Shown here piece after piece: positions 2,173-24,994 of a DNA stretch of 38,052 nt. Origin of the DNA: Bacteroidota bacterium (GTDB taxonomy: Bacteria > Bacteroidota > Bacteroidia > Bacteroidales > GCA-2748055). The translations under genes were made by a program, and so were the position numbers. How positions within the stretch are numbered: the first letter of the stretch is position 1; each line of letters starts with the position of its first letter. The stretch is taken from the NCBI GenBank assembly GCA_030637895.1, contig DAOWFP010000066.1, forward strand, positions 1-38,052, in the 5' to 3' direction. The notes under the pieces were generated by a model. The model made no database searches and was not told the DNA's origin. It saw only the letters and a program-made list of their open reading frames with translations.

Positions 2173-2221
2173 AGCATTTTGAATTTTTTGAATCCTGCAG
2201 GGTTCAAATTTCCAGTCTTAC

Positions 2222-4159: not shown

Positions 4160-4213
4160 GACAAAAAAATTTATTGATTTATATCACTAATTAAAGTGAA
4201 ACGGGTATTCATT

Positions 4214-5785: not shown

Positions 5786-5813
5786 TTTTTCTGATTATGC
5801 TGTTTCAAGTGTC

Positions 5814-7295: not shown

Positions 7296-7408
7296 AGTCG
7301 CTCTATTTTTTATAAAATATTCCGATAACACAACAATCAAATACCACCTTTTGAAGTAGTGCTTTTCCATTTTTAGAGTAAACGATTTATTTAGAGGCAA
7401 GACGACAC

Positions 7409-9661: not shown

Positions 9662-9741
9662 TTGTTCAATTTATCAGTTTTAAAATACCCTGTTGACTTC
9701 ATCACCAGATACCCGGATTCCTGAAGCTCTATATACAAGGG

Positions 9742-9786
9742 ACAATATATAACGGAGGAAGTAATAAAATATTAATATTTCTTTAA
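9742..9786 (-). promoter_or_regulatory. Promoter with TTAA-N7-TTAA box upstream of the GH92/sulfatase gene run
   Basis: Plus strand AATATA 9744-9749, 22 nt, TTAA 9772, TTAA 9783. The minus strand reads TATATTGT, resembling the Bacteroidota -7 element TAnnTTTG. Confidence 0.7.
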
Positions 9787-9909
9787 TATCCCTTTCATTA
9801 CCCCAATCCTTGTTGGGATTCTTCCCTAAGCTGATCCTCATCCCCGTTCAGTCCTCCATAGGTTGAAATATCAGAGAAGGGCGTTTCTGACAACACTCTA
9901 TGATGGTAC

Positions 9910-12645
9910 TTACGAATTCAGCTTCAATGAGGTCGTAGAATAGAACTTATATTTACCTGAACCAATTTCTATTTCTGCCTGGCCATTCTCAAAACCACGC
10001 AATTGAATTTCCTTGCTATCCAGTATGGAAATACCGCTCTCAGTAATATCAGTTTTGGAGCTTGCCGGAATAAAAACAGTGGCTGATGTATTTTCCGGAA
10101 TATCAACTTCAAGGATAAAGCTTTCTTCGGTTTTCTCCCAGCTAACTTCAATCTTACCATAGGGAGAAATATGATAACCTAAGGCCCACTGCAGCGAATC
10201 AATTTGGGCGGGTTTAATGATAATATGCTTATAACCCGGGGCTTCCGTGTCGATCTGAATGCCTAATAAACCGCGTTGAAACCAGCCACCAATCCCATTC
10301 AGGCAACCATGAACCCGTGAATTGACCGGCTCCCAGTACTCGGGCCAGGTAATCTCACCCCTTGCAATAAACTCCCCATAGCTGGGATAGGTGGTTTGAT
10401 TCATGAGTGTGTGCAAGAGCTCATGCTTCCCTGTTTCGGTCAGGTATTTGGTCAGATAGTAGGTACCGTGAATTCCGGTATCAAAATGGCCATTCTGGTT
10501 TTTATTTATTTCTTCCGCCAACCTTTTCTCTACTTCAGGAATATCTTTCTCAGGCACTATTCCGGCCATCAGTGGCATCACCAGGTGGGTTTGTCTGGTA
10601 TCGATGTAGGTGTAGTTTATAGAATCATAATAGAAGTGGTTAATCGCATCGCTTAATTCCTGTGCTTTGGTCCGGTAAGCAAGGGCATTATCTTCCATTT
10701 TCAGAATATGAGCGATGTTGGCCGCAATTTTCAATACATATACATAGTAACAGTTGTTAAACAAGCTGGCTTCAGCAGTAAAACTTTCCTCATTTCCATG
10801 TGGATTTGCCCAATCCCCAAGGAAAAGCCATCGCTTACCATCCATGTACTCCCAATCGCCTGCGGATACCACATTCAGCAATCCATTTTCATTTATATGT
10901 TCTTCCATATACACGAGCCATTTTTGAGCAGCAAGAAAGGTGCTTTCCAGTATCCGTGTATTGCCATAGCTCAGATATACTTCCCAGGGCAGGGTGAGAA
11001 TAAAACCACTCCATGCAGGACCTCCTCCGCCCCCCAGAGTAGGTGCAGTATGGTTTATGCGCCCGCTTGCATCCTGAATATCCACCCAGTCCTGTGCCCA
11101 TTTTGTGAAGAAGGGGTGTGAAGCATAGGCATCGTTTGCTATATCCAGGCTGCCATGACCGTCGCCTCCGTATCCCAGCCTTTCACGGTGAGGGCAATCC
11201 ACAGACATACCTCCGGTGGATAGACTCTCGTAGGTATAGCAGGTGTTATCGTAAATCTGGTTCAGCAACTCATTTGAACAGTGAAAATCACCAAAGCGTT
11301 CACGGTCATTTGTAACCTGGTATCCAACTATATCATGTAGCTCCGGCTGGTAATCAATACCAGCAATGCTAATATATTCAACCTGGTGATAGGAAAACCT
11401 GTTTCTAAACTTCCCCTCTCCATCATCACCAATTACCAGCACGTTTGTCTGGTTAAATTCCACCGCTCTGTCCGGATAGGAGGAAGCTGAAATGGAGATA
11501 CGCTGTCCCGGCCTTCCCTTCAATGTGGCCTCAATCCAACCTGTGTAGATGGAATCCATGGTAAATTGATACTGTCGCTCTCCCGTTTTCTTCAAGGATA
11601 TAGCCGACCGTTTCTTTACCATCCTGTTGGGTTCCAGAAAATCAGAACTTAGCTTCAATCCACATGCTACCACATCAACCCTGGCCCACTGGCTCTCCTC
11701 AAAATGGTCTAGTGCCCATTCCACATCATGATCCGCATCCACAACCAGGTCTCCACCAAAATCGCTGTTTTGCCATCTACCCAGGTGGTAGGTATTGCTC
11801 GCCGAATAGCTCCACGATTCTCCTGTGGCGATCCAATGCTCCGGACTAATTCGAAATTGAGCCCTGCATAAAGGACTTTTTTCTACATTGAAATCTACTT
11901 TGGGATTAGCATCCGAAAAATCTGCCCATCCTGACGACAACCAGATAACAATGTTGTTCTTGCCTTCCTTCAAGTGTGGAGCAATATCATAACTTGAATA
12001 CAGGACCCTGTTTCTAAGATCTGAAACCGAGGGGCTAAGCACAGCATCGCTTACCTTCTTGCCATTCACATATAGTTCGTGAAATCCAAGGGATGCGACA
12101 AAGGCAGGGGCAAAAAGGGGTGTTCTATCCAGATCAAAATCATATTTAAAGTAGGGACAATTGCTTGAATCAATGTCCGGACCATAAATCCATTCTCCAA
12201 GCCACTCATTTTCATCCAGGATTCCCGTCTCGAAAGATGCCCATTTGCTGAATTTACTTTTGCTTCCCTTATTATCTTCAATTTGAATTCTCCAATAGTA
12301 TTTCCTTGCCGATTGGAGGGGCTCGCCTTCATACCTGATATTTACAGAATTCCCGGAAGGTATTTTACCTGAATTCCAAATGGGCCAGCTAGCATCCTCA
12401 GGTATTCTTTCAGATTCATATACCAGTATTCTGTACGAGGACTGAGCAACATTCCGTCTGCCAGGAGCATCAATTTCCCAGCTCAGGTAAGGACGTGAAT
12501 GTTCAACACCCCTGGGATTGGATAAAAACTCACACTTAAGCTTCCTTGCGATCAGGTCATAGGACAGATCTTTCTTATCCTGACAGGCCGTAAGGAGGAT
12601 AAGAGTCCCTATCATCAAAACAAGATTTACTGACCTATTTATCAT
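9910..12645 (-). CDS. GH78-like alpha-L-rhamnosidase family protein, probable lipoprotein
   Basis: Lipobox LLTAC; LKCEFLSNPRG N-terminal module; SLGFHELYVNG; DCPHRERLGYGGD; GDW; C-terminal PGYKHIIIKP...SPYGKIEVSW. Confidence 0.9.
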   Translation of the reverse strand: MINRSVNLVLMIGTLILLTACQDKKDLSYDLIARKLKCEFLSNPRGVEHSRPYLSWEIDAPGRRNVAQSSYRILVYESERIPEDASWPIWNSGKIPSGNSVNIRYEGEPLQSARKYYWRIQIEDNKGSKSKFSKWASFETGILDENEWLGEWIYGPDIDSSNCPYFKYDFDLDRTPLFAPAFVASLGFHELYVNGKKVSDAVLSPSVSDLRNRVLYSSYDIAPHLKEGKNNIVIWLSSGWADFSDANPKVDFNVEKSPLCRAQFRISPEHWIATGESWSYSASNTYHLGRWQNSDFGGDLVVDADHDVEWALDHFEESQWARVDVVACGLKLSSDFLEPNRMVKKRSAISLKKTGERQYQFTMDSIYTGWIEATLKGRPGQRISISASSYPDRAVEFNQTNVLVIGDDGEGKFRNRFSYHQVEYISIAGIDYQPELHDIVGYQVTNDRERFGDFHCSNELLNQIYDNTCYTYESLSTGGMSVDCPHRERLGYGGDGHGSLDIANDAYASHPFFTKWAQDWVDIQDASGRINHTAPTLGGGGGPAWSGFILTLPWEVYLSYGNTRILESTFLAAQKWLVYMEEHINENGLLNVVSAGDWEYMDGKRWLFLGDWANPHGNEESFTAEASLFNNCYYVYVLKIAANIAHILKMEDNALAYRTKAQELSDAINHFYYDSINYTYIDTRQTHLVMPLMAGIVPEKDIPEVEKRLAEEINKNQNGHFDTGIHGTYYLTKYLTETGKHELLHTLMNQTTYPSYGEFIARGEITWPEYWEPVNSRVHGCLNGIGGWFQRGLLGIQIDTEAPGYKHIIIKPAQIDSLQWALGYHISPYGKIEVSWEKTEESFILEVDIPENTSATVFIPASSKTDITESGISILDSKEIQLRGFENGQAEIEIGSGKYKFYSTTSLKLNS

Positions 12646-12750
12646 GCCTGTGAATTAGATTTACCGGACATTTACAAGAAACTCCATGGAAGATAGAAAC
12701 AGATAGTTTTTTGGGTTAATTCTCATCCTCTGTTAAGCCTGTTGGCTATC

Positions 12751-12806
12751 CTAATATAGGATCCCGGGAATAGCAAAACATTAAAGTCGCATTAATAAAA
12801 GATTAA
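12751..12806 (-). promoter_or_regulatory. Promoter with three 11-bp-phased TTAA boxes upstream of GH78
   Basis: AATATA 12753-12758, 22 nt, TTAA at 12781, 12792 and 12803; minus strand TATATTAG. Confidence 0.72.
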
Positions 12807-12821
12807 AGCTTCAATAATAGC

Positions 12822-15230
12822 TTAAAGGTGCTTTGTCCAGATCTCTTTGATGGTTTCCTCCTGGGAATAACCAGTGGGGCATTCCTCACTTTTTGTATTC
12901 GCATGGTAGTTGCCATTTGTTTCGTTGGGACAGGATATCATGCGACTCACCGGCATTTGCAGATGTCCGTTGGGATCGGTTTCTTTTAACCAGTTAAAGG
13001 CATATTTCAACCAATCGTTCCTGTATTCCTCTGGCTGCTGAGCATACCAGGAGATCTCATCCCAGCCCCAAACAAAGATGGAGGTGGTGTCTGCTTCATT
13101 GGGTGGAGTCTTTCGTCCGTAGTTATCAAACTCAACCAGGTAAGGAAGGCTTTTACAGCTCCAGCCACTGGGTGAGATACATCCTTTACTTTTTTTGAAA
13201 AGCCCATCCAGGTAGTTCACCTCCAGCTTACTTTCATAGGGTTTCTCAGGAATTTCTTTGATGCGCATGGGAAAGGAGTTAAAATCGATCAGGCTTACAC
13301 CGTCCTTTACCATATCTCCCCTGGGCACATGGGCATCAAGCAGGACCCAATTCCTGCGGGCATGCTTCCCTGCATACTCCCGGATCTTTGTCAAAAGTCC
13401 GGCCCAATCTTTCCGTTCCGGATCATTCATTCCAATGAGCTCCACCTGTCCCAGATGAAAAGCTTCACAGCCCAGATCCATGTACGATCCTGCCAGGTAG
13501 TAGAACCAGAGTCGCGATTCCACTTTACTGATATCAGGCACGCTGCTTCCCTCCCGCCAGTGATTCACATAAATACCCTTGTCATTCAGCATGGCTTCAT
13601 AGGAGAAATTTCTTTGCTCATCAGGCAATCCAAAATCTTCAAATACCCAATGTGGTATTTTCACCTCATTCACTTCTTCGGTCACAATTTCAAATAAACA
13701 GCCCTGGAAAATTATTTCCGGATCAAATGCATGGAGGGTATCCATCAGGGATTTTGCATCGCTCCAGAAATCAGGATCATTTAAACGACTTTCGCCTCCC
13801 CAACGATAGAGGGCCCGCCCGATAAATTTGGCACCGATATTCTTTATTAATCGGATATCGTCGGAATGAAAGGGATAGGTACGTCGGCCTTCGGGATGAT
13901 GTGGTACCAGGAAAAAGGCCATGGTGACTGAGCGGTCCAGGTAGTTTTCCAACACCTCTCGTGATATCCCATCTTTATCAAAATTGAATGACCTGGACCC
14001 TCCAAATGTCCTGTTATATAGATTCTCCTCTTTATCAAAGCAGCCTGCCATTTGAATAACAGCCTGATCATTCTCAATGCTTATGGGAGAATCGGAAACA
14101 TAATTTCTCATGCGGCTTCCCCATATGGATACAGTTAATTTCTTATCTCCTCTTACCAGCAGGAAATCCCATGACATATTTTCAGGGACCGTGGTAAGTG
14201 CTCCATTCCCCCCCGAAAATGCTTCCACATTGCTCAGAGAAGTATGCCCCTCTCCTTCGATAATGATGGGATGTATATTTTCAACGCTCTCGCCGGTATT
14301 GGCGATAATGGAGCCCTGTGCAATCTGCCAGTTACGGTTCTTTGTGTTGTTGCCTCGTTTTAAAATGCCAACAGCCACACAGTCGAAGTTGAAATTGGTA
14401 AGTTGCCCGTAGGATTCTCCATCCAGCAGAATCCCTCCATAAGTGCCAAAGGTGAAGAGATCAATCAGCTGTGCATTATCGGTATGATTTATGGTAAAGG
14501 TAAAGGTCTTTTTTGCGATGACGGCATCCACCACTTCCCTGCTGAACTGCCCTCCAATAAAACGCTGTATGGCAGGATTCACATGACAATGCAAGATGCG
14601 TGGAACATCATAACAGTAATTTATCCGGATAAACTCACCACTGAGGGGGTATCCGTAGCAGTGTTCAAAGGTCATTAGCTCGCAGGCAAATTTTCGCTGC
14701 GCATTAAAATCAAAGGCCAGGTATTCACCGTAAAAGGTAAGGCATGAAAGGTAGACACCCTGAGATCTGCTGGTTTCCGAAACCTTTATGGTGGCCGGAT
14801 ATGGAATAATGGCCGTCGGATCATCAATGGTTTGCTCGGGATACCAGAACTGGATCCCCTTTATCTGTGTACCCGACTCTACGGTAATGAAGGCATTCTC
14901 CTGATCGGTAATGGCAAAAACACTTCCCACCGGCTGCTTTTTGGTTGAATGGGCCGTCCCCCGCGGAGTTGGTCCATGCACCCCGATCAGTGAAACATTT
15001 TTCTTCAAAATGATTCCGCCGTCCACTGCATAGGGTTCTTCTGAGGGTTCTACCAGGAGAGCCGAACCGGTAGCAGAGGCCCAGTCAATGGCTTTTTGAA
15101 GGTTGAGCTTATTTTTGGCGGAACTGTTCCCCGGCTTTACACCAAATTTTTGAATACTTGGTATCTCGGATGCTACGGCCAGATTTATACTGAGGACCAG
15201 CAGCAAAGATATGATTGCAATCCTTTTCAT
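12822..15230 (-). CDS. Secreted two-domain hypothetical protein (right-handed beta-helix-like N-terminus plus putative barrel C-terminus)
   Basis: 802-aa ORF with signal peptide. The N-terminus FGVKPG...NLQKAID...Y.VDGGIIL..NVSLIG resembles the Pectate_lyase_3-type start. A second domain begins near FNFDKDGISREVLENYL. Confidence 0.7.
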   Translation of the reverse strand: MKRIAIISLLLVLSINLAVASEIPSIQKFGVKPGNSSAKNKLNLQKAIDWASATGSALLVEPSEEPYAVDGGIILKKNVSLIGVHGPTPRGTAHSTKKQPVGSVFAITDQENAFITVESGTQIKGIQFWYPEQTIDDPTAIIPYPATIKVSETSRSQGVYLSCLTFYGEYLAFDFNAQRKFACELMTFEHCYGYPLSGEFIRINYCYDVPRILHCHVNPAIQRFIGGQFSREVVDAVIAKKTFTFTINHTDNAQLIDLFTFGTYGGILLDGESYGQLTNFNFDCVAVGILKRGNNTKNRNWQIAQGSIIANTGESVENIHPIIIEGEGHTSLSNVEAFSGGNGALTTVPENMSWDFLLVRGDKKLTVSIWGSRMRNYVSDSPISIENDQAVIQMAGCFDKEENLYNRTFGGSRSFNFDKDGISREVLENYLDRSVTMAFFLVPHHPEGRRTYPFHSDDIRLIKNIGAKFIGRALYRWGGESRLNDPDFWSDAKSLMDTLHAFDPEIIFQGCLFEIVTEEVNEVKIPHWVFEDFGLPDEQRNFSYEAMLNDKGIYVNHWREGSSVPDISKVESRLWFYYLAGSYMDLGCEAFHLGQVELIGMNDPERKDWAGLLTKIREYAGKHARRNWVLLDAHVPRGDMVKDGVSLIDFNSFPMRIKEIPEKPYESKLEVNYLDGLFKKSKGCISPSGWSCKSLPYLVEFDNYGRKTPPNEADTTSIFVWGWDEISWYAQQPEEYRNDWLKYAFNWLKETDPNGHLQMPVSRMISCPNETNGNYHANTKSEECPTGYSQEETIKEIWTKHL

Positions 15231-15239
15231 TTTTTTGTA

Positions 15240-16328
15240 TTAAGGTTCTAACAACTTTGATAAGTCCACCGAATCGTAGGGTTTTTCTCCGAATCCCGCA
15301 TAATACTCCAGGAGAATCCTTTCGCCTGTTTCATCTATTTTAATCACAGCATATCCGGGTAAATCGGTCTGTTTAAAATAGCTTACATGCTTCGCCTCTT
15401 CAGCCAACATGGCCTTTCTAGCCTCCAGAGTTTCGGGCTGCCACCCGCTCATGTTTTCCGCAAGCGATGGGCCATATTCCGTAATCACTTTTGCAGGCTC
15501 CTGGTAATCTCTTTCTTTGATCACACTGATTACCATAAGTTGTACCACTGGCCCGTAGGGAGTTTCCCGCCGCACAAGCGAATAACGATGCAGGTGGCCG
15601 CATAAGACTATCGCTTTGTGACTGGCAATGACTTTAAGAAGCTCATCCCGCTTTTCAGTATCCCGCCTCAGGGTGTGCCAGCACCTTTCTGTAACCGGGA
15701 TTACAGGTTCATGGATAGCCACGAATTTATACTTCGCATCCGACCCTGAAAGTTCCTGCTCAAGGAAAGAGATCATATCTGTCTCTTTATCCCAGGGATC
15801 CAAACAGGTGATCTGAACATTGTTGTAGCAGTAGGAATAACTGGCACGCTTGATATCCGGATTTCCGGTCTGTTTTCTGATCATGGGAACATAGTGTTCC
15901 TGAAAGGCTTCATGTGCTCCGGGCCCTGTTATATCGTGATTTCCCTTGGTCAGGATCCAGGGTGCGGGCATTCTGGCAGCTTCAATGGCTTCCATGGTAT
16001 TGGATGCCATCTGATGGGCTTTTACATCATTACCGGCAAGACCTTCCGACAGATCTCCCAGTTGAATGATCGCTTTTACTGGTGGATCGGTATGTTCAGC
16101 TCTCTTTTTGAGAACCGACATAAAATCGGTCCAGTTCTCCCTGGTGTAAACGGTGTATTCTTCCGTCACCTGGCGCAAGTCACCCGGCTTCTGCTTAAGC
16201 CAGTCCATATCATGATCATCCAGAAGATCATAATGCAAATCCCCAAGCACGATGAAACTGCTGCTCTGGTCCTCTGAGCAATTACTTAGTAAAACCAGCA
16301 GTGAAGCCAGCAACAAAAATCTTTTCAT
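15240..16328 (-). CDS. Metallophosphoesterase, probable lipoprotein
   Basis: GDLHY, LGDL, KGNHD, GHLH motifs. Start placed at ATG 16328 (MKRFLL...LLSNC) rather than TTG 16343. Confidence 0.87.
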   Translation of the reverse strand: MKRFLLLASLLVLLSNCSEDQSSSFIVLGDLHYDLLDDHDMDWLKQKPGDLRQVTEEYTVYTRENWTDFMSVLKKRAEHTDPPVKAIIQLGDLSEGLAGNDVKAHQMASNTMEAIEAARMPAPWILTKGNHDITGPGAHEAFQEHYVPMIRKQTGNPDIKRASYSYCYNNVQITCLDPWDKETDMISFLEQELSGSDAKYKFVAIHEPVIPVTERCWHTLRRDTEKRDELLKVIASHKAIVLCGHLHRYSLVRRETPYGPVVQLMVISVIKERDYQEPAKVITEYGPSLAENMSGWQPETLEARKAMLAEEAKHVSYFKQTDLPGYAVIKIDETGERILLEYYAGFGEKPYDSVDLSKLLEP

Positions 16329-16345
16329 TACAATAAGATTCAACT

Positions 16346-17437
16346 TTACCTGCTTAATTTAACCGGCATCCCGGTTTCGCTGCTTTGACGTGCAGCCTCC
16401 AGGATCTCTACTACAGTAAGGTTTATTTCCAAAGAGGATAAATCGGTAGGAGCAACCTTGATATCTCCTTTGACCGCTGCCGCAAAAAAGGCAAAAGGAT
16501 CCGTAAATGGAGCCGCTGATACCGGCACTTTCTTAAGTTCCTCACCTGTTTTTTCGTCCAGGCGGAACCTGATGGTTTCTGCATCATCTATAAATACATA
16601 TCCGGAATTTCCATAGATATGCATGTCTTTCCGGTTGAAGGGCCAGTTCCATGAGGCATGAATAACTCCCTCCATGTCCGGATAGGAAAGAACGATGGTA
16701 GCATCATCATCCACATGGGGATAGACATCTGGCTTATACTGCTTTAATTCAGCATATACAGTGAGGGGCTTTTCCCCTTTGAGCATCCAGGTGATCAGGT
16801 CAGCGCCATAACATCCAAAGTCGATCACAGCCCCACCTCCATTTAACACAGGATCGGTCAGCCACTCTAAAAATTCAGGATTCACACCAATTTCTTTGGG
16901 ACCTTTATGGCCGTCGTAGACAATAACCTTTCTTAATTCCCCGAGCTCTCCATTTCTTACCATGTCATATCCCACATAATTAGAAGGATACCAGGTGGTT
17001 TCATAGTTGGTCAAAACCTGAATTCCATGCTCCTCTGAAAGCTTTTTCATGATCCCTGCATGTTCAGTAGATACGGCCAGGGGTTTTTCAACCATCACAT
17101 CAATGCCTCGTTTGGCACAGGCTTGCACCACCTCTAAATGATCGAAGATTGAAGTAAAAGTGATAACCCCATCAGGCCTGGTCTTCTCCAGCATCTCTTC
17201 CAGTGACTCATAAATCAGATTCTTGTCAAGGTGATAAGCCTCAGCATATCGATCTGAAAGATCGGTATTGCTTTCTGCGATTCCCACAATTTGAATATCT
17301 TCCCGATCCAGGTTTCTAAGTAAAGGGATCACATGCGAATGAGACAATCCCGCAACCCCAATTCTTACAGGCTCCTGGCCGGATATGGGATTCATTAGAA
17401 CTCCCATGCACAGAATAAAAAGAGTGGTAATTCTCAT
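16346..17437 (-). CDS. Gfo/Idh/MocA family oxidoreductase with Sec-type signal peptide
   Basis: RIGVAGLSHSH Rossmann start, VEKPLA, GGGAVIDFGCYG. Confidence 0.9.
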   Translation of the reverse strand: MRITTLFILCMGVLMNPISGQEPVRIGVAGLSHSHVIPLLRNLDREDIQIVGIAESNTDLSDRYAEAYHLDKNLIYESLEEMLEKTRPDGVITFTSIFDHLEVVQACAKRGIDVMVEKPLAVSTEHAGIMKKLSEEHGIQVLTNYETTWYPSNYVGYDMVRNGELGELRKVIVYDGHKGPKEIGVNPEFLEWLTDPVLNGGGAVIDFGCYGADLITWMLKGEKPLTVYAELKQYKPDVYPHVDDDATIVLSYPDMEGVIHASWNWPFNRKDMHIYGNSGYVFIDDAETIRFRLDEKTGEELKKVPVSAAPFTDPFAFFAAAVKGDIKVAPTDLSSLEINLTVVEILEAARQSSETGMPVKLSR

Positions 17438-17465
17438 AGCAAACCGTAAAGTTTGGCATTAGGTA

Positions 17466-18569
17466 TCAGGTACTAATCTGCTGCAGTGCATAGGCATAAG
17501 CACCCAGCGCTATAGACTCACTGGCTCCCCTTGTGCTGGTGGCGATGGCCAGCCTGGGTACCGGATCATAGGATATGGTTTTGTCAGTTCCCGGAATAGG
17601 AAGGGTTTTGGAATAATCCCTGAAAAAATCCTTCCGCTCCTCTTCATTGTCCAGGTTAAATACCTTCTGTACCAATCTGGGTAGTTCATCTGCATTGGAG
17701 GGACGAAACTTGTAGTTCAACTCCTCCATCACGGCTGGCATATAAAGATCCCTTGCGCCGGTAATCCCTCCACCGATCACAGCGATTCCATCAGAAAGAG
17801 TCAGGATATTGGCTACCGTATCACCCAGGGCACGTCCTGTGGCTTCATATGCTTTCAAAGCTGCTTCTCTGTTCCCCTCCTTCTCTCCTCTGGCTATCTC
17901 ATATATATCCTTGGGTTCCAGTTCGTTGGGATATTTAATACCAGCCTCTTCGGCGTAAAACCTTTGAACAGACCGAATGCTCACCGCATCTTCAGCATTG
18001 ATGGTAGGGTGATGCCTGTTGCTGAAAAGCCACACTTCTGCAGCAGTTACATTATCACCGGTGATCAGCTGACCGTTCGAAACAAAGCCACCACCAAAAC
18101 CGGTACCCAGTGTAAAGCCAAAGAGGTTCTTGTATCTTTTTGGACTTCCTGAGGCCTCAAGTTGGCTGTTGATCTCGGGTAAAATCCCTCCAAGAGCCTC
18201 TCCATAGGCAAAGAGGTCGCCATCATTGTTTATATATACCGGCAATCCAAACTCCTCTTCCAGGATGCTTTTCAGCGGCACACCTCCCTGAAAAGCAGGA
18301 AGATTGTTGGAATTATCTATGATCCCGTTGGCATAGTCTGCCGGCCCCGGAAAGGCAAAACTAATTGCCACGGGGATCTCCTCTATGGATTGAATAACCT
18401 CACTAAAGCCCTCCTTCATGGTGGCCAGGCATCTTTCCAGGTGATCTGCATTGGAATCCTTTCTGATCCCGCCTGTGATGGCTTTGCCGCTTTTGAATGC
18501 ATTAAATACGAAATTAGTTCCACCTGCATCCAGGGTCAACACCACCCGTTCATCATTATAAATATTCAT
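17466..18569 (-). CDS. ROK family hexose kinase
   Basis: LDAGGT, FPGP, INNDGD, TLGTGFGGG; no N-terminal HTH, so a kinase rather than a repressor. Confidence 0.9.
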   Translation of the reverse strand: MNIYNDERVVLTLDAGGTNFVFNAFKSGKAITGGIRKDSNADHLERCLATMKEGFSEVIQSIEEIPVAISFAFPGPADYANGIIDNSNNLPAFQGGVPLKSILEEEFGLPVYINNDGDLFAYGEALGGILPEINSQLEASGSPKRYKNLFGFTLGTGFGGGFVSNGQLITGDNVTAAEVWLFSNRHHPTINAEDAVSIRSVQRFYAEEAGIKYPNELEPKDIYEIARGEKEGNREAALKAYEATGRALGDTVANILTLSDGIAVIGGGITGARDLYMPAVMEELNYKFRPSNADELPRLVQKVFNLDNEEERKDFFRDYSKTLPIPGTDKTISYDPVPRLAIATSTRGASESIALGAYAYALQQIST

Positions 18570-18572
18570 CTC

Positions 18573-19730
18573 TTATGCTTTAGAGGTTCGGGTCGCGATG
18601 TACAGAATATATATCATGCAGAGACCGGGGACAATAAATCCGGCCATCAGACCTGCCATGTCTGCAACCACACCAAACAGGATGGGTACAAAGGCTCCTC
18701 CAATAATAGCTGTTACCATAAGGCCCGAAATTTCATTGCTTCTGTCAGGGTAGGCATCCACAGTAATGGAAAATATGAGTGGGAAAATATTTGCAAAACC
18801 CAGCCCGATGATGGCGATAAATACAAAGGCCAGCACCTCACTTGAGGCAATAAAGAGACCAGCAATACCTAAAATGGAAAGGATGCTGGTAATAATCAGG
18901 AACCTCTTAGGTGATAACCAGTTCAGAATCACACCGCCTAAAAACCTTCCGGTCATCAGGGACAAAAAGAAAAACAGGGTGCCAAACAATCCCTTTTCTT
19001 TGATATCGAAGTCAAATTTCGCTTCTAGAAAGTTAGGGAGTTTCGCACTCATGCTCACCTCGGAGCCCACGTAGAGAAAAATGCCAATGACCATGAGCAG
19101 TATATAGGGATTCTTCAACAGTCCTAAACATGATTTCAGTGTGGCCGGCTTTTCAGGAGTGGCCTTTTCTTCGATGCGAGTGACTAACAATATAACTACA
19201 ACCAGTAGCATCACCCCTCCATAGATCGGAAACAGTAATTTCCAGTCCAATCCCCAATAACGTGCAGCCAGAATGGGGATCAGTGAACCCGACAGGGAGC
19301 CAATGGCCTTCACAAACTGTCCGAAGCTTAGGTTCCTGGAATATTTCCCTTCTGGCGAAACATCCCGCATTATTGGATTCCCTGCTACCTGAAGCATTGT
19401 GGCTCCGGTACCCAGAAAAAGAAGACCTCCCAGAATTAGTATAAAGGATTCATAATTTCCAATGATGGGCAGGATCATTCCCACCAGTGCTGCAAACAAG
19501 CCCATCATCAGCACATGCTTCCTTCCCTTCCGGTCCTGGTACAAACCCATTGGAATGGAGAGTAAGCCAAACATAATGAAGGCCATGAAGGTTACCAGCC
19601 CGGCCTGAAAATTATTCAGGGCGAAATCTGATTGCAGTTGGCTGGTCAGGGGTCCGGATACATCTCCAAAACCCATCACCAGGAAAGCCAGAAATATGGG
19701 CGTCGATTTAAACATGTTGTTCTTTGTCAT
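18573..19730 (-). CDS. MFS sugar permease (FucP/GluP-like)
   Basis: About 12 hydrophobic segments; LQVAGNP, FLYVGSEV, ANIFPLIFS motifs. Confidence 0.9.
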   Translation of the reverse strand: MTKNNMFKSTPIFLAFLVMGFGDVSGPLTSQLQSDFALNNFQAGLVTFMAFIMFGLLSIPMGLYQDRKGRKHVLMMGLFAALVGMILPIIGNYESFILILGGLLFLGTGATMLQVAGNPIMRDVSPEGKYSRNLSFGQFVKAIGSLSGSLIPILAARYWGLDWKLLFPIYGGVMLLVVVILLVTRIEEKATPEKPATLKSCLGLLKNPYILLMVIGIFLYVGSEVSMSAKLPNFLEAKFDFDIKEKGLFGTLFFFLSLMTGRFLGGVILNWLSPKRFLIITSILSILGIAGLFIASSEVLAFVFIAIIGLGFANIFPLIFSITVDAYPDRSNEISGLMVTAIIGGAFVPILFGVVADMAGLMAGFIVPGLCMIYILYIATRTSKA

Positions 19731-19766
19731 AGCTCAAATTGGTCGGTTCGAAAAAAGAATTTTTGT

Positions 19767-19811
19767 TTAATATAGCATCATTGCTGAAAAAAAACATTAA
19801 TTAATTCTTAA
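19767..19811 (-). promoter_or_regulatory. Promoter with TTAA-N7-TTAA box upstream of the MFS-ROK operon
   Basis: AATATA 19769-19774, 22 nt, TTAA 19797, TTAA 19808. Confidence 0.7.
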
Positions 19812-19932
19812 AAAGATCAAACAAAATATATTTCCATGTGTTGAAAGCACTAACTTGTTTTTCTAATATAATTCATACATCTTCGCAACAAGCTATGGAT
19901 AAATTTTTTGCCTATTCACAAGTTCTCAGCGG

Positions 19933-22458
19933 GTGACCTATAATACAAAAACAAAGAATAGCTTATTGAGTCGGATATTATGGCTATTCCTACTCGCCTT
20001 CATGCACTTATGCACCATTGTTGAAGGACAGTATTATGGAATGAAGTTTGCCGGTATTGAACATTCTCTTGATCAGCGATCAGGTCTTAATCTTACTCCG
20101 GAGCATTCTCTTAATTTCAAGGGCAATCTGGATCTGGAGTTTTACCTTCGTTTTGAAGCGGATCATGAATCCTACTTTGGTTACATCTTTCGACTCATTC
20201 TCGGAGATAAGAACATCGACTTAATTCATGGTGTCGTCCCCGGTAATCCCAATAACTTCGAATTGATCCTCGATGGGAAAACCAGTGATATCGCTTTTAA
20301 GGTTCCTCTTGATGATCTAAGAAAAGGCTGGTTAAAAATCAGGCTGGAGCTAAATTTCGAAGAGGGTCAGATTACCTTCTATTACAATGACATAGCTCTG
20401 GTGGAAGATCTAGACGCCTATGATCCTAGAAGTGGTTTTCGATTGATGTTTGGGGCCAACTCATTTGGTAACTTTTCATCCACAGATGTTCCAAATATGA
20501 TTATCCGGGACGTGCAGGTGAAAAGTGGGAAAAACACCAGGATAATCTGGCCCCTGGATGAAACTGGTGGTATTATCGCCCATTCCTTTCCCGGGGGAAA
20601 TAATGGAATTGCAGTCAATCCGGAATGGTTATTGAAATACCATAATACCTGGGACCAGAGGTTGAGCAAGCAGATATCCGGAGAAGTAAAGACAGCCTTT
20701 GATTCCAAAAACGATGATCTTTATTTACTCACTACGGATTCTCTCCATATATATAATATAGCGGATGATTCCATAAGAAGCTTAGCTCTGGGATTAGCTT
20801 ACCCCCTTGAAAGTTCCACCCAAATTATCTTTGACACCTCCTCCAATAATCTATTGATGTACTCCCTGGATTATAATTTTATAGCCACTTTTGATTGGGA
20901 GACAAGGATGTGGGACACATATGATACGGGTCCAAGAGATATTACAGTCTACTGGCACCACAGCCGTTTTATTGATCAGGATGGATCGCTTATTGCCTTC
21001 GGTGGCTATGGGCAGTATACCTTTAAAAATTCGGTATTTCTCTGGAATCCCGAAAAGAGTCGTTTCGATAGCATTAGTTACCAGGGAGACTTTCTTCCCA
21101 GGTATCTTGCAGGGGCAGGCTATAATCCCGGCGATAGTCTTTTCTATTTAATAGGTGGCTACGGTAGTGAAAGCGGAAAACAATCTGAGAGTCCGGACTA
21201 CTATTATGAGTTGATCCGTTTCTCCCCGGACGACAGAGCTTTTTCCAATGTGCATAAGTTCGAGGATACAGAGGCCGGATTCTGCTTTGCTAATTCCATT
21301 GTTTTTGATGATGCCAACAATCTTTATGCGCTTTATTTTCCCAAATATCAATTTGACAACCAGCTCCAGTTAATCAAGGTCTCACCTGAGAATCCTGAAA
21401 TTTTTGAGCTGGGGAACGCCATTGATTTCAGTTTTCTGGATATAAACTCAAGTGCTGATCTTTATTACAGCCAGAGATCCGGTTCCCTCCTGGCATTATC
21501 ATCCTACACTTCAGATGGCACCACTCAGGTCTCTATTAATACCATTGCATTTCCACCGCAAAGTTTTTCGACAAAAACTGTAGCAGAGCAAAAACGAAAC
21601 CCTGGTATTGTTAAATACTTTTTGATTGCAGTCCTGGTGTTTGTAGCCAGCTACCTGATTAGTCTTCTAAGGAAAAAGGGGAAGTCTTCAAAAAGAAAAA
21701 CTATTTCTACCCACAGGGAAGGAGCTCCAACAACCAGGGCGAACTCCATCATCCTATTCGGGGGATTCCAGGTAATAGACAAAGCCGGGAACGATATCAC
21801 AGGTCAGTTTACCCCCCTGCCGAAGAAATTATTTCTGTTCATTCTTCTGCACTCCTTGCGAAACGATAAAGGGGTCTCATCCAACACCCTTTATGAAACC
21901 TTCTGGTTTGAAAAAGCAGTGGAAAGTGCCAGAAATAACAGGGCTGTGAATATCGTAAAATTGAAATCCCTGCTCGACAGTCTTGATTCTGCTGCCATCT
22001 CAAAAGCTACCGGTTACTGGAAATTCAATTTTGACCCTGCTGCGATATCTATAGACTATTTTGAATACCTGCAACTTGTCAGCCAGACAAAGGAAACAAC
22101 AAGGGAGCAAGTTGTTCGTCTTCTGGCTATTATTGAAAACAATCCCTTTTTAAACAATACAAATGCTGATTGGCTCGACCCCTTCAAATCTGAAGTATCC
22201 AATGCCATCATTGACACCTTATTCAGGTATATCCATAACGCTGATGATGATCCAGAGTTTCTGCTGCACCTGACCAAATGCATTTTTCAATGTGATATCG
22301 TTAGTGAAGAAGCACTTAAGATCCAGTTGCGCTTGCTCATCAAGCAAGGCAAGCACAGCCTGGCACAGAAAGCTTACTCGATTTTTCTTAAGGAGTACGA
22401 AACGCTTTATAATGAAGCCTACGGTTTAAGCTTTAAACAGCTTATTGGCGAGGAGTAG
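19933..22458 (+). CDS. Membrane-spanning one-component transcriptional regulator (periplasmic LamG/Kelch-like sensor, cytoplasmic SARP/OmpR-like wHTH-BTAD domain)
   Basis: N-terminal hydrophobic signal; Kelch-like FGGYG and IGGYG repeats; TM IVKYFLIAVLVFVASYLISLL followed by a basic stretch; C-terminal ILFGGFQV...LFLFILL...FW...ARNNRAVNIVKLKSLL and a helical tail. The GTG start is uncertain. Confidence 0.8.
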   Translation: MTYNTKTKNSLLSRILWLFLLAFMHLCTIVEGQYYGMKFAGIEHSLDQRSGLNLTPEHSLNFKGNLDLEFYLRFEADHESYFGYIFRLILGDKNIDLIHGVVPGNPNNFELILDGKTSDIAFKVPLDDLRKGWLKIRLELNFEEGQITFYYNDIALVEDLDAYDPRSGFRLMFGANSFGNFSSTDVPNMIIRDVQVKSGKNTRIIWPLDETGGIIAHSFPGGNNGIAVNPEWLLKYHNTWDQRLSKQISGEVKTAFDSKNDDLYLLTTDSLHIYNIADDSIRSLALGLAYPLESSTQIIFDTSSNNLLMYSLDYNFIATFDWETRMWDTYDTGPRDITVYWHHSRFIDQDGSLIAFGGYGQYTFKNSVFLWNPEKSRFDSISYQGDFLPRYLAGAGYNPGDSLFYLIGGYGSESGKQSESPDYYYELIRFSPDDRAFSNVHKFEDTEAGFCFANSIVFDDANNLYALYFPKYQFDNQLQLIKVSPENPEIFELGNAIDFSFLDINSSADLYYSQRSGSLLALSSYTSDGTTQVSINTIAFPPQSFSTKTVAEQKRNPGIVKYFLIAVLVFVASYLISLLRKKGKSSKRKTISTHREGAPTTRANSIILFGGFQVIDKAGNDITGQFTPLPKKLFLFILLHSLRNDKGVSSNTLYETFWFEKAVESARNNRAVNIVKLKSLLDSLDSAAISKATGYWKFNFDPAAISIDYFEYLQLVSQTKETTREQVVRLLAIIENNPFLNNTNADWLDPFKSEVSNAIIDTLFRYIHNADDDPEFLLHLTKCIFQCDIVSEEALKIQLRLLIKQGKHSLAQKAYSIFLKEYETLYNEAYGLSFKQLIGEE

Positions 22459-22467
22459 TAACACCCT

Positions 22468-22501
22468 AAAAAAAGAGAGTGTACCTTTTGATACACCCTC
22501 T
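22468..22501 (-). terminator. Intrinsic terminator
   Basis: Minus strand AGAGGGTGTATC-AAAA-GGTACACTCTCT followed by a T-run. The 12-bp stem has two G-U pairs that would be A-C mismatches on the plus strand. Confidence 0.85.
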
Positions 22502-22558
22502 AAACCTGAAATACTTCAACTAACTAAATTACTACTAAAAAACTACTTGCGTTATTCT
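22468..22558 (-). ncRNA. Candidate ~90-nt small RNA
   Basis: Bounded by a conserved promoter (22564-22608) and the terminator; no ATG; U/G-rich body with repeated UAGU. The 5' end is estimated from the -7 element. Confidence 0.6.
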
Positions 22559-22563
22559 GGGTG

Positions 22564-22608
22564 CTAATATATAGCTGGATAAATAAAAAATTATTAATAA
22601 TACCTTAA
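22564..22608 (-). promoter_or_regulatory. Promoter with TTAA-N7-TTAA box not followed by an ORF
   Basis: AATATA 22566-22571, 22 nt, TTAA 22594, TTAA 22605; minus strand TATATTAG. Confidence 0.7.
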
Positions 22609-22628
22609 TACAGTAATTAATTTCGTTT

Positions 22629-24926
22629 TTATTCCCAGAACACTCTTTTTTCTGGTCCCATTATGAATGTAATGGTGGCACCTGCCTCAATATCAGCGTG
22701 ATTAATATATGGTTCCTCTAGCTTAACTCCATTTAGTTGAACCTCCTGTACATATGGATTGGCTTCTGATCTGTTCCTGGCGATAACACTAAAAATCTTC
22801 CCATTGGCCATATCAATTTCCACCCTGTCAAAGGAGGGGCGCCCTATAGAGTAACGAACATCACCCGGACATACAGGATAAAAGCCAATGGAATTCAGAA
22901 TGTACCAGGCAGACATCTGTCCGCAATCCTCATTCCCCACAATTCCATCAGGTTTATCTGTGTAGAACTGCTCCAGGATCTCTGAGACAAGCTCCTGTGT
23001 TCTCCAGGGCTGATCCACGTAGTTATAAAGGTAGGCGATATGGTGACTGGGCTCATTTCCATGTGCATACTGTCCAATCAGGCCTGTAATATCCACACTT
23101 TTCTCTTCCCCAAGAACTTCTGAGGTAATGCTAAAGAGCGAATCAAGTTTAATGATAAATGACTCTGGCCCTCCCATCAGATCAATCAGCCCGTAAACAT
23201 CATGCGGTACATACCAGGTCCATTGCCATGCATTTCCCTCAACATAGGGTGTTGCCCAATGGGCCGAGTACCTTGGATGAAAGGGCTCCAACCAGCTTCC
23301 ATCCAGATTCTTACCACGCATAAAGCCAAGCTCTGGATCAAAATAGGTGGAGTAGCGCTTTGACTTTGCGAAGAACTCCTCGGCTAAATCCTCTTCACCC
23401 ATTTCTTTTGCCATGCTTGCTATGGCCCAGTAGTTATAAGCGAATTCCAATGCCTTTGATACAGAAGAATGCTCCAGATCGCATGGAATGAAGCCATATT
23501 TTTCCTCAAATAACTTCGCTTCCGGCATCAGGTTCCCCCAGGCCTCCTCAGAGGGATAGTTGATCTCTTTAATGGTGTCATAAGCCACTGAATGAACGAT
23601 TGCTTCAAGTGCCTTCTCCGCATCAAAGTTGCGATGGCCCTTCATATAGGCATCAACGATTACCGAAACCGCATGTGATCCGATCATGGTTCCTGTATAG
23701 TTGGAAGCCAATCCCCACATGGGTAATATTCCGCCTTCATCGTATTTCCGCAGGAGAGCCCTGATTAGCTCCTGGTTGTAATCCTGGTTCAGTATGGTAA
23801 ACAAGGGATGAAGCGCACGGTGGGTATCCCACAAGGAAAATACTGTATAATTGGGGCTGCTGGAGTAATGAATCTGCTGATCCATGCCCCGGTAGGTCCC
23901 ATCCACATCAGAATAGATCCCCGGGTATATGGAACTATGGTACAGGGCAGTATAAAAGGTCCTTTTCTCACTCAGGTCATTTGTCTCTATCCGTACTTTT
24001 GACAGCTCCTTCTCCCAGATCCTCTCCGCCTGGCTGCTGATGTAATCGAAATCCCATCCATTTAACTCCTGGTTCAGGTTCTTTGCCGATCCTTCATAAC
24101 TAACTGCACTAAGTCCAATCTTTGCAATAACCTGCTCCCCTTCTTCCGTATGAAATTTTAATTTAAGCTTCGCATTCTTACCTGATACACTTGTACTGCC
24201 CTCCTGCAGCTCATTGTCCAGGTATAACTCGGCATCAAAGGGTTTTGAAAATTTCGCAGTAAAATAGACATAATGATTCTTCGCCCACCCGGAAGTCACT
24301 TTCAGGCCCTGGATCTCTTGCTTATTAAGTATTTTAATCTCGTGAAGAGGGTTTTCATGACCATGAATGGTATGTGTTAGATCTATCAGAATTCCAGCAT
24401 TCTCTGCTTCAGGAAAAGTATAGCGGTGCATTCCCGTATGGTAAGTCGAGCTTAATTCAACTCCTACATTATAATCTGTTAGCTCAACGCTGTAGTAGCC
24501 AGGTCGGGCACTTTCCTTCTCTTTGTTAAATCTTGATCTGTATCCTGAATCGATCTGATCTTCAGAACCTGCATCCAGGGAAACTTCCCCGGTATAAGGC
24601 ATAAATAAAATATCTCCATAGTCTCCAATTCCGGTTCCACTCAGATGGGTATGGCTGAAACCAAGGATGGAAGAGTCTGAGTAGTGATAACCGGCGCAGG
24701 CATCCCAGCCAAGGGTACGTGTATCAGGACTAAGTTGTACCATACCAAAGGGAAGTGTGGCACCGGGAAATGTATGTCCATGGAAATCAGTACCGATAAA
24801 AGGGTCTACATAAGCAACGAATTCTGCACGATTCCGGCTTTTTATTATGGGCCCGCCACAGGCAAAAACGATAAGCGCAAATAGCGTGATGAGGAAAAGT
24901 GGACTTTTGAATCCTATCGTTGTCAT
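22629..24926 (-). CDS. GH92 family alpha-1,2-mannosidase-like, probable lipoprotein
   Basis: YVDPFIGT..HGHTFPGA..PFGMVQLSPDT, GFSHTHLSGTG, SLWDTHRALHP, EGNAWQW, HGNEPSHH, GNEDCGQMSAWY. Confidence 0.95.
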   Translation of the reverse strand: MTTIGFKSPLFLITLFALIVFACGGPIIKSRNRAEFVAYVDPFIGTDFHGHTFPGATLPFGMVQLSPDTRTLGWDACAGYHYSDSSILGFSHTHLSGTGIGDYGDILFMPYTGEVSLDAGSEDQIDSGYRSRFNKEKESARPGYYSVELTDYNVGVELSSTYHTGMHRYTFPEAENAGILIDLTHTIHGHENPLHEIKILNKQEIQGLKVTSGWAKNHYVYFTAKFSKPFDAELYLDNELQEGSTSVSGKNAKLKLKFHTEEGEQVIAKIGLSAVSYEGSAKNLNQELNGWDFDYISSQAERIWEKELSKVRIETNDLSEKRTFYTALYHSSIYPGIYSDVDGTYRGMDQQIHYSSSPNYTVFSLWDTHRALHPLFTILNQDYNQELIRALLRKYDEGGILPMWGLASNYTGTMIGSHAVSVIVDAYMKGHRNFDAEKALEAIVHSVAYDTIKEINYPSEEAWGNLMPEAKLFEEKYGFIPCDLEHSSVSKALEFAYNYWAIASMAKEMGEEDLAEEFFAKSKRYSTYFDPELGFMRGKNLDGSWLEPFHPRYSAHWATPYVEGNAWQWTWYVPHDVYGLIDLMGGPESFIIKLDSLFSITSEVLGEEKSVDITGLIGQYAHGNEPSHHIAYLYNYVDQPWRTQELVSEILEQFYTDKPDGIVGNEDCGQMSAWYILNSIGFYPVCPGDVRYSIGRPSFDRVEIDMANGKIFSVIARNRSEANPYVQEVQLNGVKLEEPYINHADIEAGATITFIMGPEKRVFWE

Positions 24927-24948
24927 GCCTTCTAAATTCTAATTAGGC

Positions 24949-24993
24949 ATAAAATAAGATTGGCAACTTAATTTTCGATTAACAAATGATTAA
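24949..24993 (-). promoter_or_regulatory. Promoter with three 11-bp-phased TTAA boxes upstream of GH92
   Basis: TTAA at 24968, 24979 and 24990; AAAATA 24951-24956 (one mismatch to AATATA) lies 22 nt from TTAA 24979. Confidence 0.6.
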
Positions 24994-24994
24994 T

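Follow-up and report, generated by a model that had tools for sequence, protein, structure and literature searches.

Bacteroidota switch their polysaccharide-use genes through hybrid two-component systems, sigma/anti-sigma pairs, and SusR, and to our knowledge, the DNA sites of most such regulators are poorly known. Promoters of the primary sigma factor of this phylum carry TTTG at −33 and TAnnTTTG at −7. In Actinobacteria, the Streptomyces antibiotic regulatory proteins (SARPs) include AfsR and EmbR, and ActII-ORF4 and DnrI are also SARP activators. According to one account of these proteins, they bind direct repeats at intervals of 11 or 22 bp, the 3′ member of which stands 8 bp from the −10 element; the SARPs described are activators, and AfsR works by "sigma adaptation" (PMC10936776). 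Here, we analyzed a 38,052-nucleotide stretch of DNA from a Bacteroidota bacterium (assembly GCA_030637895.1, contig DAOWFP010000066.1, positions 1 to 38,052 of the forward strand; hereafter, the window), in which five intergenic sites combine TTAA direct repeats with a downstream TAnnTT box. In our view, these five sites likely serve as activator-dependent promoters and belong to one regulon, under the control of a sensor-regulator encoded next to them (19933 to 22458, plus strand). The TTAA repeats themselves are very probably, judging from comparative genomics and structural modeling, docking sites of this adjacent, membrane-anchored protein.

Exact matches to the plus-strand pattern AATATA-N22-TTAA-N7-TTAA (N followed by a number denotes a spacer of that many nucleotides) were found at 9744 to 9786, 12753 to 12795, 19769 to 19811, and 22566 to 22608, and a fifth site, at 24951 to 24993, carries AAAATA, one box base off the pattern. 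Read along the minus strand, the sites correspond to TTAA-N7-TTAA-N22-TATATT, with TATTTT at the fifth. They lie in the intergenic intervals 9662 to 9909, 12646 to 12821, 19731 to 19932, 22459 to 22628, and 24927 to 24994, and no site of the TTAA-N7-TTAA-N22-TATATT kind was detected to the right of 24993 in the window. An earlier reading made without database searches (the sequence-only reading) had described five intergenic, minus-facing promoters with a TATATT box and fixed spacers of 7 and 22 nt and had not seen the pattern by the right-hand genes. On rescanning, all of its site coordinates were correct, including extra TTAAs at 12803 and 24968, and placement, orientation, and spacing agreed with its description; the TATATT box is exact in four sites and reads TATTTT in the fifth, for which that reading had also given the plus-strand AAAATA. 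As for the 22-nt spacer, its length is exact, but it conceals a degenerate third repeat; across the regulator family (see below), the arrays have three repeats, and 11 nt separate the last of them from the box. Numbering the sites W1 to W5 from left to right, this third phase position reads TTAC in W1, CTAT in W2, TTTC in W3, TTAT in W4, and a full TTAA in W5.

Four of the sites precede protein genes of the minus strand. W1 (9744 to 9786; TTAA, TTAA, TTAC, N11, TATATT) is the predicted promoter of an operon encoding a glycoside hydrolase of family 92 (GH92), a sulfatase, a metallophosphoesterase, an ADP-ribosylglycohydrolase/Calx-beta protein, and a second GH92. W2 (12753 to 12806), which has three perfect TTAAs (12806, 12795, and 12784), CTAT at the fourth phase position, N11, and TATATT (12758 to 12753), is predicted to drive a GH78 rhamnosidase gene (12645 to 9910). 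W3 (19769 to 19811) consists of TTAA (19811 to 19808), TTAA (19800 to 19797), the degenerate third repeat TTTC, N11, and TATATT (19774 to 19769), and it is the predicted promoter, divergent from the regulator gene, of an MFS-ROK-GFO-metallophosphoesterase-unknown operon (19730 down to 12822). The full three-repeat form is found in W5 (24951 to 24993), with perfect TTAAs at 24993, 24982, and 24971, N11, and TATTTT (24956 to 24951), in front of the GH92 gene (24926 to 22629) whose promoter it is predicted to be. In W4 (22566 to 22620), TTAA at 22620, set off by a 12-bp step, is followed by TTAA at 22608, TTAA at 22597, TTAT, N11, and TATATT (22571 to 22566).

Within its genome, the pattern was confined to the window. 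When both strands of the source genome were scanned (2,373,527 bases in 210 contigs, of which the window is contig C173; completeness, 58.75%), the four exact matches were all located within the window, and relaxing the box added the fifth site only. Across 25 spacer combinations (N5 to N9 between the repeats and N20 to N24 before the box), N7/N22 gave 4 exact matches, N5/N20 gave 1, and the other 23 gave none. Dinucleotide shuffles (n = 100) contained no match. In the intergenic DNA of the genome (102,867 bases, 61.8% A+T), the 4 matches observed compare with ~0.02 expected, a value obtained from sixty equal-sized first-order Markov simulations of intergenic DNA that together produced 1 match. 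Chance frequency in AT-matched intergenic DNA, the first check put forward by the sequence-only reading, therefore does not explain the pattern. The counts of N7/N22 with one and two mismatches were at background (4 and 37, versus 1 to 7 and 19 to 49 for other spacers), and thus, the signal consists of these few sites and not of a diffuse AT effect.

Each of the five promoters comprises a TAnnTT box (TATATT or TATTTT) with two to four TTAAT(n) repeats in 11-bp steps. This spacing puts the repeats on one face of the helix, and with the TA of the box set at −12, their centers fall near −49, −38, and −27. The sequence-only reading had placed the proximal TTAA where the −33 element should be; with the same setting, it occupies about −38 to −35, a little farther upstream than −33. 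TTTG at a spacer of 19 to 21 was absent from all five promoters, the only TTTG spacers found being 15, 43, and 26, and the five boxes fit TAnnTT without the final TG of TAnnTTTG. Among 1,283 upstream regions of the genome, TAnnTTTG occurred 236 times in sense versus 158 times in antisense orientation, with a peak 10 to 40 nt before the ATG, and therefore, Bacteroidota-type promoters apply in this genome; genome-wide counts of TTTG-N14..26-TAnnTTTG showed no clear peak at 19 to 21. Spacers of 11 or 22 nt are ill-suited to a two-box promoter of the sigma-70 family, and a promoter of an extracytoplasmic function sigma factor was dropped as a candidate, there being no sigma gene in the window. A heptamer TTAATnn plus 8 nt equals the N11 observed and matches the rule for the 3′ repeat in the SARP account (PMC10936776). 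Repeats two and three cover about −39 to −18, nearly coincident with the afs box of AfsR at −40 to −19, as given there (PMC10936776). The SARP repeat geometry is complete in W5 and in a further site on contig C40 (see below), and in W1 to W4, it is present with a degenerate last repeat.

The regulator gene (19933 to 22458, plus strand) encodes 841 amino acids from a GTG start and was characterized by translation, hydropathy, Pfam, and AlphaFold2 (AF2) modeling. Hydropathy indicated a signal peptide at residues 10 to 32 and one transmembrane helix at residues 557 to 582, followed by RKKGKSSKRK. The exported part was modeled as a beta-sandwich plus a six-bladed Kelch propeller (predicted local distance difference test, pLDDT, of 89.6), with structural matches to Kelch propellers, and Pfam reported only Kelch-type families in the whole protein. 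The cytoplasmic part (ca. residues 600 to 841, ca. 240 amino acids) consists in the model of a SARP-like winged helix-turn-helix and a helical, BTAD-like domain. An AF2 model of the C-terminal 252 amino acids (pLDDT of 91.6) aligned with AfsR (8k60_I, Z score of 15.4; 8hvr_I, 15.2) and EmbR (14.5 to 14.9), in both cases over 230 to 232 residues; the next entry after these two proteins scored 8.5, and AfsR and EmbR were all 6 of the Foldseek matches at an E value of ≤0.001 (probability of 1.0; template modeling score of 0.61 to 0.65). Residues 14 to 113 of the same model also align to the DNA-binding domain of SaeR (Z score of 7.7). An OmpR-type winged helix is thus followed in the model by a BTA helical domain as one compact SARP module, which supports the SARP/OmpR-like C-terminal domain that had been proposed from the letters. 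The regulator is therefore a predicted membrane-anchored one-component sensor with a cytoplasmic DNA binder of the SARP fold. The records of its relatives at JGI carry the name "SARP family transcriptional activator," and the putative recognition helix, ARNNRAVNI, shows little or no variation among 42 sequences with identities as low as 40%, a constancy that fits the unchanged TTAA core. The database copy of the protein (P0002) has 818 amino acids, and its start, 23 codons later, would remove the signal peptide; the longer GTG start is more likely because the orthologues align from residue 4.

Related genomes connect the sites to this gene. At orthologous loci, the regulators of which are 53 to 59% identical, the W3 site has been conserved in position in six of six cases (G019, G029, G020, G033, G023 with N21, and G007 with a TATCTT box), and around it the flanks and the inner spacer diverge. 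In five same-genus genomes with the regulator, the three-repeat pattern had 6, 4, 8, 5, and 10 matches and the reversed-pattern control 0, versus 0 matches in each of five same-genus genomes without it (97 to 100% complete), the genomes compared being not independent of one another. All 8 matches in G020 and all 4 in G029 are on the contig of the regulator.

Beyond the genus, 241 relatives of the whole regulator protein and 606 clusters of relatives of its C-terminal region were found. Among the 120 of the 606 matches listed, most are 800 to 880 amino acids long, with a few shorter ones from short contigs, and most carry Kelch-type Pfam families, none of them any other family. Confirmed regulator loci numbered 449 among species-representative genomes, the nearest named relatives being metagenome-assembled genomes of Bacteroidales. 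Carriers of the family also include Pedobacter ginsengisoli Gsoil 104, Pedobacter foliorum, Mucilaginibacter pineti, a Chitinophaga strain, and Emticicia aquatilis. The family is sporadic, with one carrier in an even draw of 200 Bacteroidota genomes (≥90% complete), a number too small for a phylum-wide statistic. We examined 80 related loci, several of them truncated, from Bacteroidales, Pedobacter, Mucilaginibacter, Puia, Chitinophaga, Cyclobacterium, Emticicia, and others. TTAA-N7-TTAA occurred 193 times in these loci, versus 25 to 76 times for other spacings of N3 to N12. Away from the regulator gene, array density was 0.086 per kb, and in the 450 bp next to the gene it was 9 to 17 times higher (0.76 and 1.49 per kb); such nearby arrays were present in 60 of the 80 loci. 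The 56 triple arrays gave the consensus TTAATnwTTTw three times, N11, and TAnnTT(T/G).

A TAnnTT box was found at N10 to N12 in 95 of 134 arrays, versus 22 to 23 at control offsets, and 69 of these 95 boxed arrays had an open reading frame (ORF) start within 150 nt downstream, versus 9 of 95 on the other strand. Boxed, nonhairpin arrays stood beside the regulator in 52 of the 80 loci; by placement, 20 were upstream and divergent, 5 upstream and directed toward the regulator, 30 downstream and codirectional, and 5 downstream and convergent. The five loci with a boxed upstream array facing the regulator suggest positive autoregulation in some members of the family; the regulator-adjacent upstream array of the window, W3, is divergent only. 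A scoring of boxes at ≥5 of 6 bases of TAnnTTTG with N20 to N24 returned 15 mostly irrelevant sites and was replaced by anchoring on the arrays. The genes next to the regulator vary, with 8 GH92, 10 SusC-like, 2 sulfatases, and 1 GH95, among others, in 30 sampled. The regulator gene is the one constant partner of the arrays.

The mechanism that we propose would begin with the exported beta-sandwich and Kelch propeller sensing a periplasmic glycan fragment, most likely mannose-rich and possibly sulfated. The single helix would cross the membrane, and the cytoplasmic SARP-fold domain would bind DNA, with protomers side by side, one per 11-bp repeat, holding RNA polymerase and so standing in for the absent −33 contact, in the manner of AfsR on the afs box. 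As the outcome, the MFS/kinase operon, the GH78 gene, two GH92 operons, and a terminated RNA of ~90 nt (see below) would be switched on. That the effect is activation rather than repression is what we infer, and a DNA binder tethered to the membrane may have only a short reach, which could be why the sites cluster beside the regulator gene. The sequence-only reading had already assigned the sites to activation by the product of 19933 to 22458, and it finds support here from comparative and structural inference.

A number of observations weigh against this picture. The C-terminal 241 amino acids matched no Pfam family at an E value of ≤10, and the C-terminal domain matched nothing in NCBIfam; searches of this domain against the PDB, by phmmer or profile, retrieved no SARP (Kelch only in the profile search). 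The box-proximal repeat is degenerate (2 or 3 of 4 bases) in four of the five window sites, and in AfsR, this is the repeat that contacts region 4 of sigma. Among the 80 loci, control spacers still gave nearby arrays in 8 to 18, and 28, within a set of which several are truncated, had no boxed array within 450 bp. Terminator hairpins account for four of the proximal arrays, TTAA-N7-TTAA being contained by chance in their stems; such false positives of the plain count lie at L040:4466, L043:6757, L099:6833, L106:6812, and L113:6815. One pattern match was present in a regulator-less genome of another genus (G110), and in G071, the one carrier in the even draw of 200 genomes, the only exact match is 58 kb from the regulator, with looser arrays flanking the regulator gene of that genome. 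There is no protein gene downstream of W4 to activate. Finally, the count of sites is a lower bound because of the incompleteness of the source genome.

The sequence-only reading had taken all five sites for promoters; W1, W2, W3, and W5 stand in front of protein genes, but W4 does not. It begins 9 nt past the stop codon of the GH92 gene and is directed at the tail of the regulator gene, which runs toward it, with a terminator in between. An intrinsic terminator (stem at 22501 to 22474, 12 pairs, followed by T7) is located ~65 nt downstream of the W4 box, and the transcript would therefore be ~90 nt long, ending 9 nt before the regulator stop codon. This predicted RNA, which would also be the GH92 3′ untranslated region (UTR), extends from 22559 to 22467 on the minus strand, with ends placed from terminator scan, fold, and alignment; it has a fold z score of −2.82 and a UAGUAG-rich body. 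A W4 site in the same convergent position and orientation occurs in four related loci (L040, L041, L043, and G020), in which repeats, box, UAGUAG-rich body, and hairpin are all kept; the hairpin of the window differs from theirs in sequence and is kept in structure.

W4 thus probably drives a regulated small RNA that shares the terminator of GH92. A serious contender, which we hold to be the less likely of the two, is that W4 is not a small-RNA promoter and would instead be a remnant or, near the regulator gene, an auxiliary or decoy site for binding, with the hairpin as the plain GH92 terminator. In keeping with this, G019 and G029 have the UAGUAG-rich body and hairpin right after GH92 without a TTAA promoter, so that this sequence can also occur as an ordinary 3′ UTR; in addition, Rfam reported no family in the window, the W4 RNA included, and UAGUAG clusters were found at only three other places in the genome, all unrelated. 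A complete architecture with an exact TATATT, kept in the same place and orientation in four related loci, argues instead for the small-RNA promoter.

For the sites as a whole, the alternatives are far weaker. The same protein on the same repeats might act as a repressor, with its cover over −50 to −18 blocking RNA polymerase until a ligand releases it, and the repeats do overlap the core promoter, a place where repressors also sit. We nevertheless find this improbable, given that the strict repeat-box distance (N11 here and N10 to N12 in most family arrays) is a need of polymerase contact and not of occlusion and that the promoters are without a −33 element. Described SARPs, moreover, activate from the same distance to the −10 box (PMC10936776). 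Activation by the adjacent sensor-regulator remains the preferred reading, and a shade less probable even than repression is that another protein binds the repeats, the Kelch-SARP protein having other targets or none. The ROK-family protein of the W3 operon would be one candidate, since ROK regulators exist and its gene lies within the cluster, and a global carbon regulator would be another, AT-rich operators being common. However, the ROK protein shows only a sugar-kinase-type ROK domain (residues 11 to 285), neighbors differ widely across the 80 loci with the regulator gene as the sole constant beside the arrays, and the sites are absent from the five related genomes without the regulator. 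We rejected as having next to no probability the view that the pattern simply follows from AT-rich intergenic DNA or represents a UP-like element shared by strong promoters in general: the A+T content of the intergenic DNA and the arrays obtained with control spacers speak for it, but the excess of observed over expected matches, the prominence of a single spacer pair out of 25, and the lack of matches elsewhere in the genome and in the five regulator-less relatives all speak against it.

The DNA runs that contain the window are labeled as cold-seep and marine-sediment metagenomes. The predicted targets of W1 to W3 occupy 1 to 19730 of the minus strand and encode two GH92 proteins, a sulfatase, two metallophosphoesterases, the ADP-ribosylglycohydrolase/Calx-beta protein, GH78, an 802-amino-acid protein, a GFO/IDH/MocA oxidoreductase, a ROK-family protein, and an MFS transporter. 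The first gene of the W1 operon is a GH92 gene at 7409 to 9661 (minus strand), and its last, the second GH92 gene, runs off the window at position 1. Together with the predicted W5 target, a GH92 alpha-mannosidase gene by Pfam (22629 to 24926, minus strand), this minus-strand cluster for the breakdown of glycans, mannan among them, has three GH92 alpha-mannosidases in total. No SusC or SusD gene was found in the window. From its first GTG (5814 to 7430), the sulfatase ORF overlaps the GH92 ORF (7409 to 9661) by 22 nt, which fits one operon, and the true sulfatase start may lie further in. The ADP-ribosylglycohydrolase fused to Calx-beta (2222 to 4159, minus strand) is unusual company for GH92 and sulfatase genes. 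The last gene of the W3 operon (12822 to 15230, minus strand), encoding the 802-amino-acid protein, matched no Pfam family, and its NCBIfam match was at chance level only. Outside the regulon, 35272 to 36666 (minus strand) encodes a class III nucleotidyl cyclase domain fused to an HD domain.

Further candidate sites were found on other contigs. On C40 (L036), 6218 to 6260 (plus strand) reads TTTA, TTAA, TTAA, N11, TATATT and lies 36 nt before a GH99-like gene; the genes downstream encode the GH99-like protein, three sulfatases, a type IX secretion system protein with GH99/LamG parts, and a metallophosphoesterase. This is a probable sixth site of the same type. On C127 (L037), 2359 to 2429 contains a triple TTAA and a further TTAA pair in 11-bp phase between a GH92 gene (24 to 2312, minus strand) and a divergent gene of a PQQ-type beta-propeller (2471 to 5140, plus strand), with weaker boxes (TTTCTT at N11 and, on the other strand, TATTTC at N21). 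The regulon probably extends to C40 and C127. On C21, a triple TTAA in 11-bp phase (1938 to 1963, plus strand) is followed by a perfect TATTTTTG box at N23.

Taken as proposed, the regulator and its sites would be a further class of regulators of polysaccharide utilization loci (PULs) with a short, strict, conserved operator-promoter code, and its targets, mainly GH92 alpha-mannosidases, SusC-like transporters, and sulfatases, could be predicted from sequence in soil, freshwater, and marine Bacteroidota. The class would provide a test bed both for how an activator substitutes the −33 contact of the Bacteroidota sigma factor and for how a membrane-tethered DNA binder finds its sites, here clustered beside its own gene, and the promoter-sensor pair could become a glycan-inducible switch for Bacteroidota genetic tools. 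A much wider version, in our judgment rather doubtful, is that one-polypeptide glycan sensors bring the SARP activation of Streptomyces to the polymerase of Bacteroidota throughout the phylum, with protomers on 11-bp repeats replacing the upstream contact. Their regulons would then be readable (TTAAT three times, N11, TAnnTT) in hundreds of species, and the sensor studied here would also drive a UAGUAG-rich RNA, tail-to-tail with its own gene, as an arm of the polysaccharide-use switch.

How the locus stands among known systems can be seen from several comparisons. "SARP-OmpR" proteins are listed among predicted PUL regulators in one catalogue (PMC7641319), and this is probably the class to which the window regulator belongs; in the literature on SARPs in a Bacteroidota or PUL context, that listing was the only mention found, with no account of the architecture, operator, or promoter form of the family. 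With SusR-like regulators, as described earlier (PMC3878776), the window regulator shares, by prediction, a periplasmic sensor, one transmembrane segment, a cytoplasmic C-terminal DNA-binding domain, and control of adjacent glycan genes. The motifs of SusR, however, were predicted as two boxes 67 or 77 bp apart (PMC3878776), versus the 11 bp found here, and the sensor of the window regulator is a Kelch propeller; among the 120 of the 606 C-terminal-domain relatives listed, none bears the name SusR. The histidine kinase, receiver, and AraC domains of hybrid two-component systems were not found in the regulator, in which Pfam detected only Kelch-type families.

In ToxR/CadC-type regulators, a single polypeptide combines a periplasmic sensor with a winged-helix DNA binder that is anchored in the inner membrane. 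In the window regulator, the domain order is inverted, with an N-terminal sensor exported by a signal peptide and a C-terminal binder, and a BTA-like helical domain is added. DapZ and MicL are 3′-UTR small RNAs transcribed from a separate promoter that lies within the upstream gene or shortly after it. The W4 unit, for the predicted RNA of which no target was found, would likewise use one terminator with the GH92 gene before it and start from a promoter of its own right behind the GH92 stop codon.

The closest likeness in the binder is to the SARPs AfsR and EmbR, with which the regulator shares the predicted fold of the DNA-binding module, an OmpR-type winged helix plus a helical BTA domain. 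The promoters are alike in their 11-bp direct repeats, the 8-bp gap between heptamer and box, and the poor or missing upstream element. Detectable sequence similarity to SARPs is lacking, and the regulator is thus not a member of that family at the sequence level. The module of the SARPs is N-terminal in a soluble protein, whereas that of the window regulator is C-terminal and follows an exported Kelch sensor and the membrane helix. SARPs belong to Actinobacteria and target antibiotic clusters through G+C-rich repeats, while the regulator described here, in a Bacteroidota host whose primary sigma factor reads −33/−7 boxes, would target glycan-degrading genes through TTAAT repeats.

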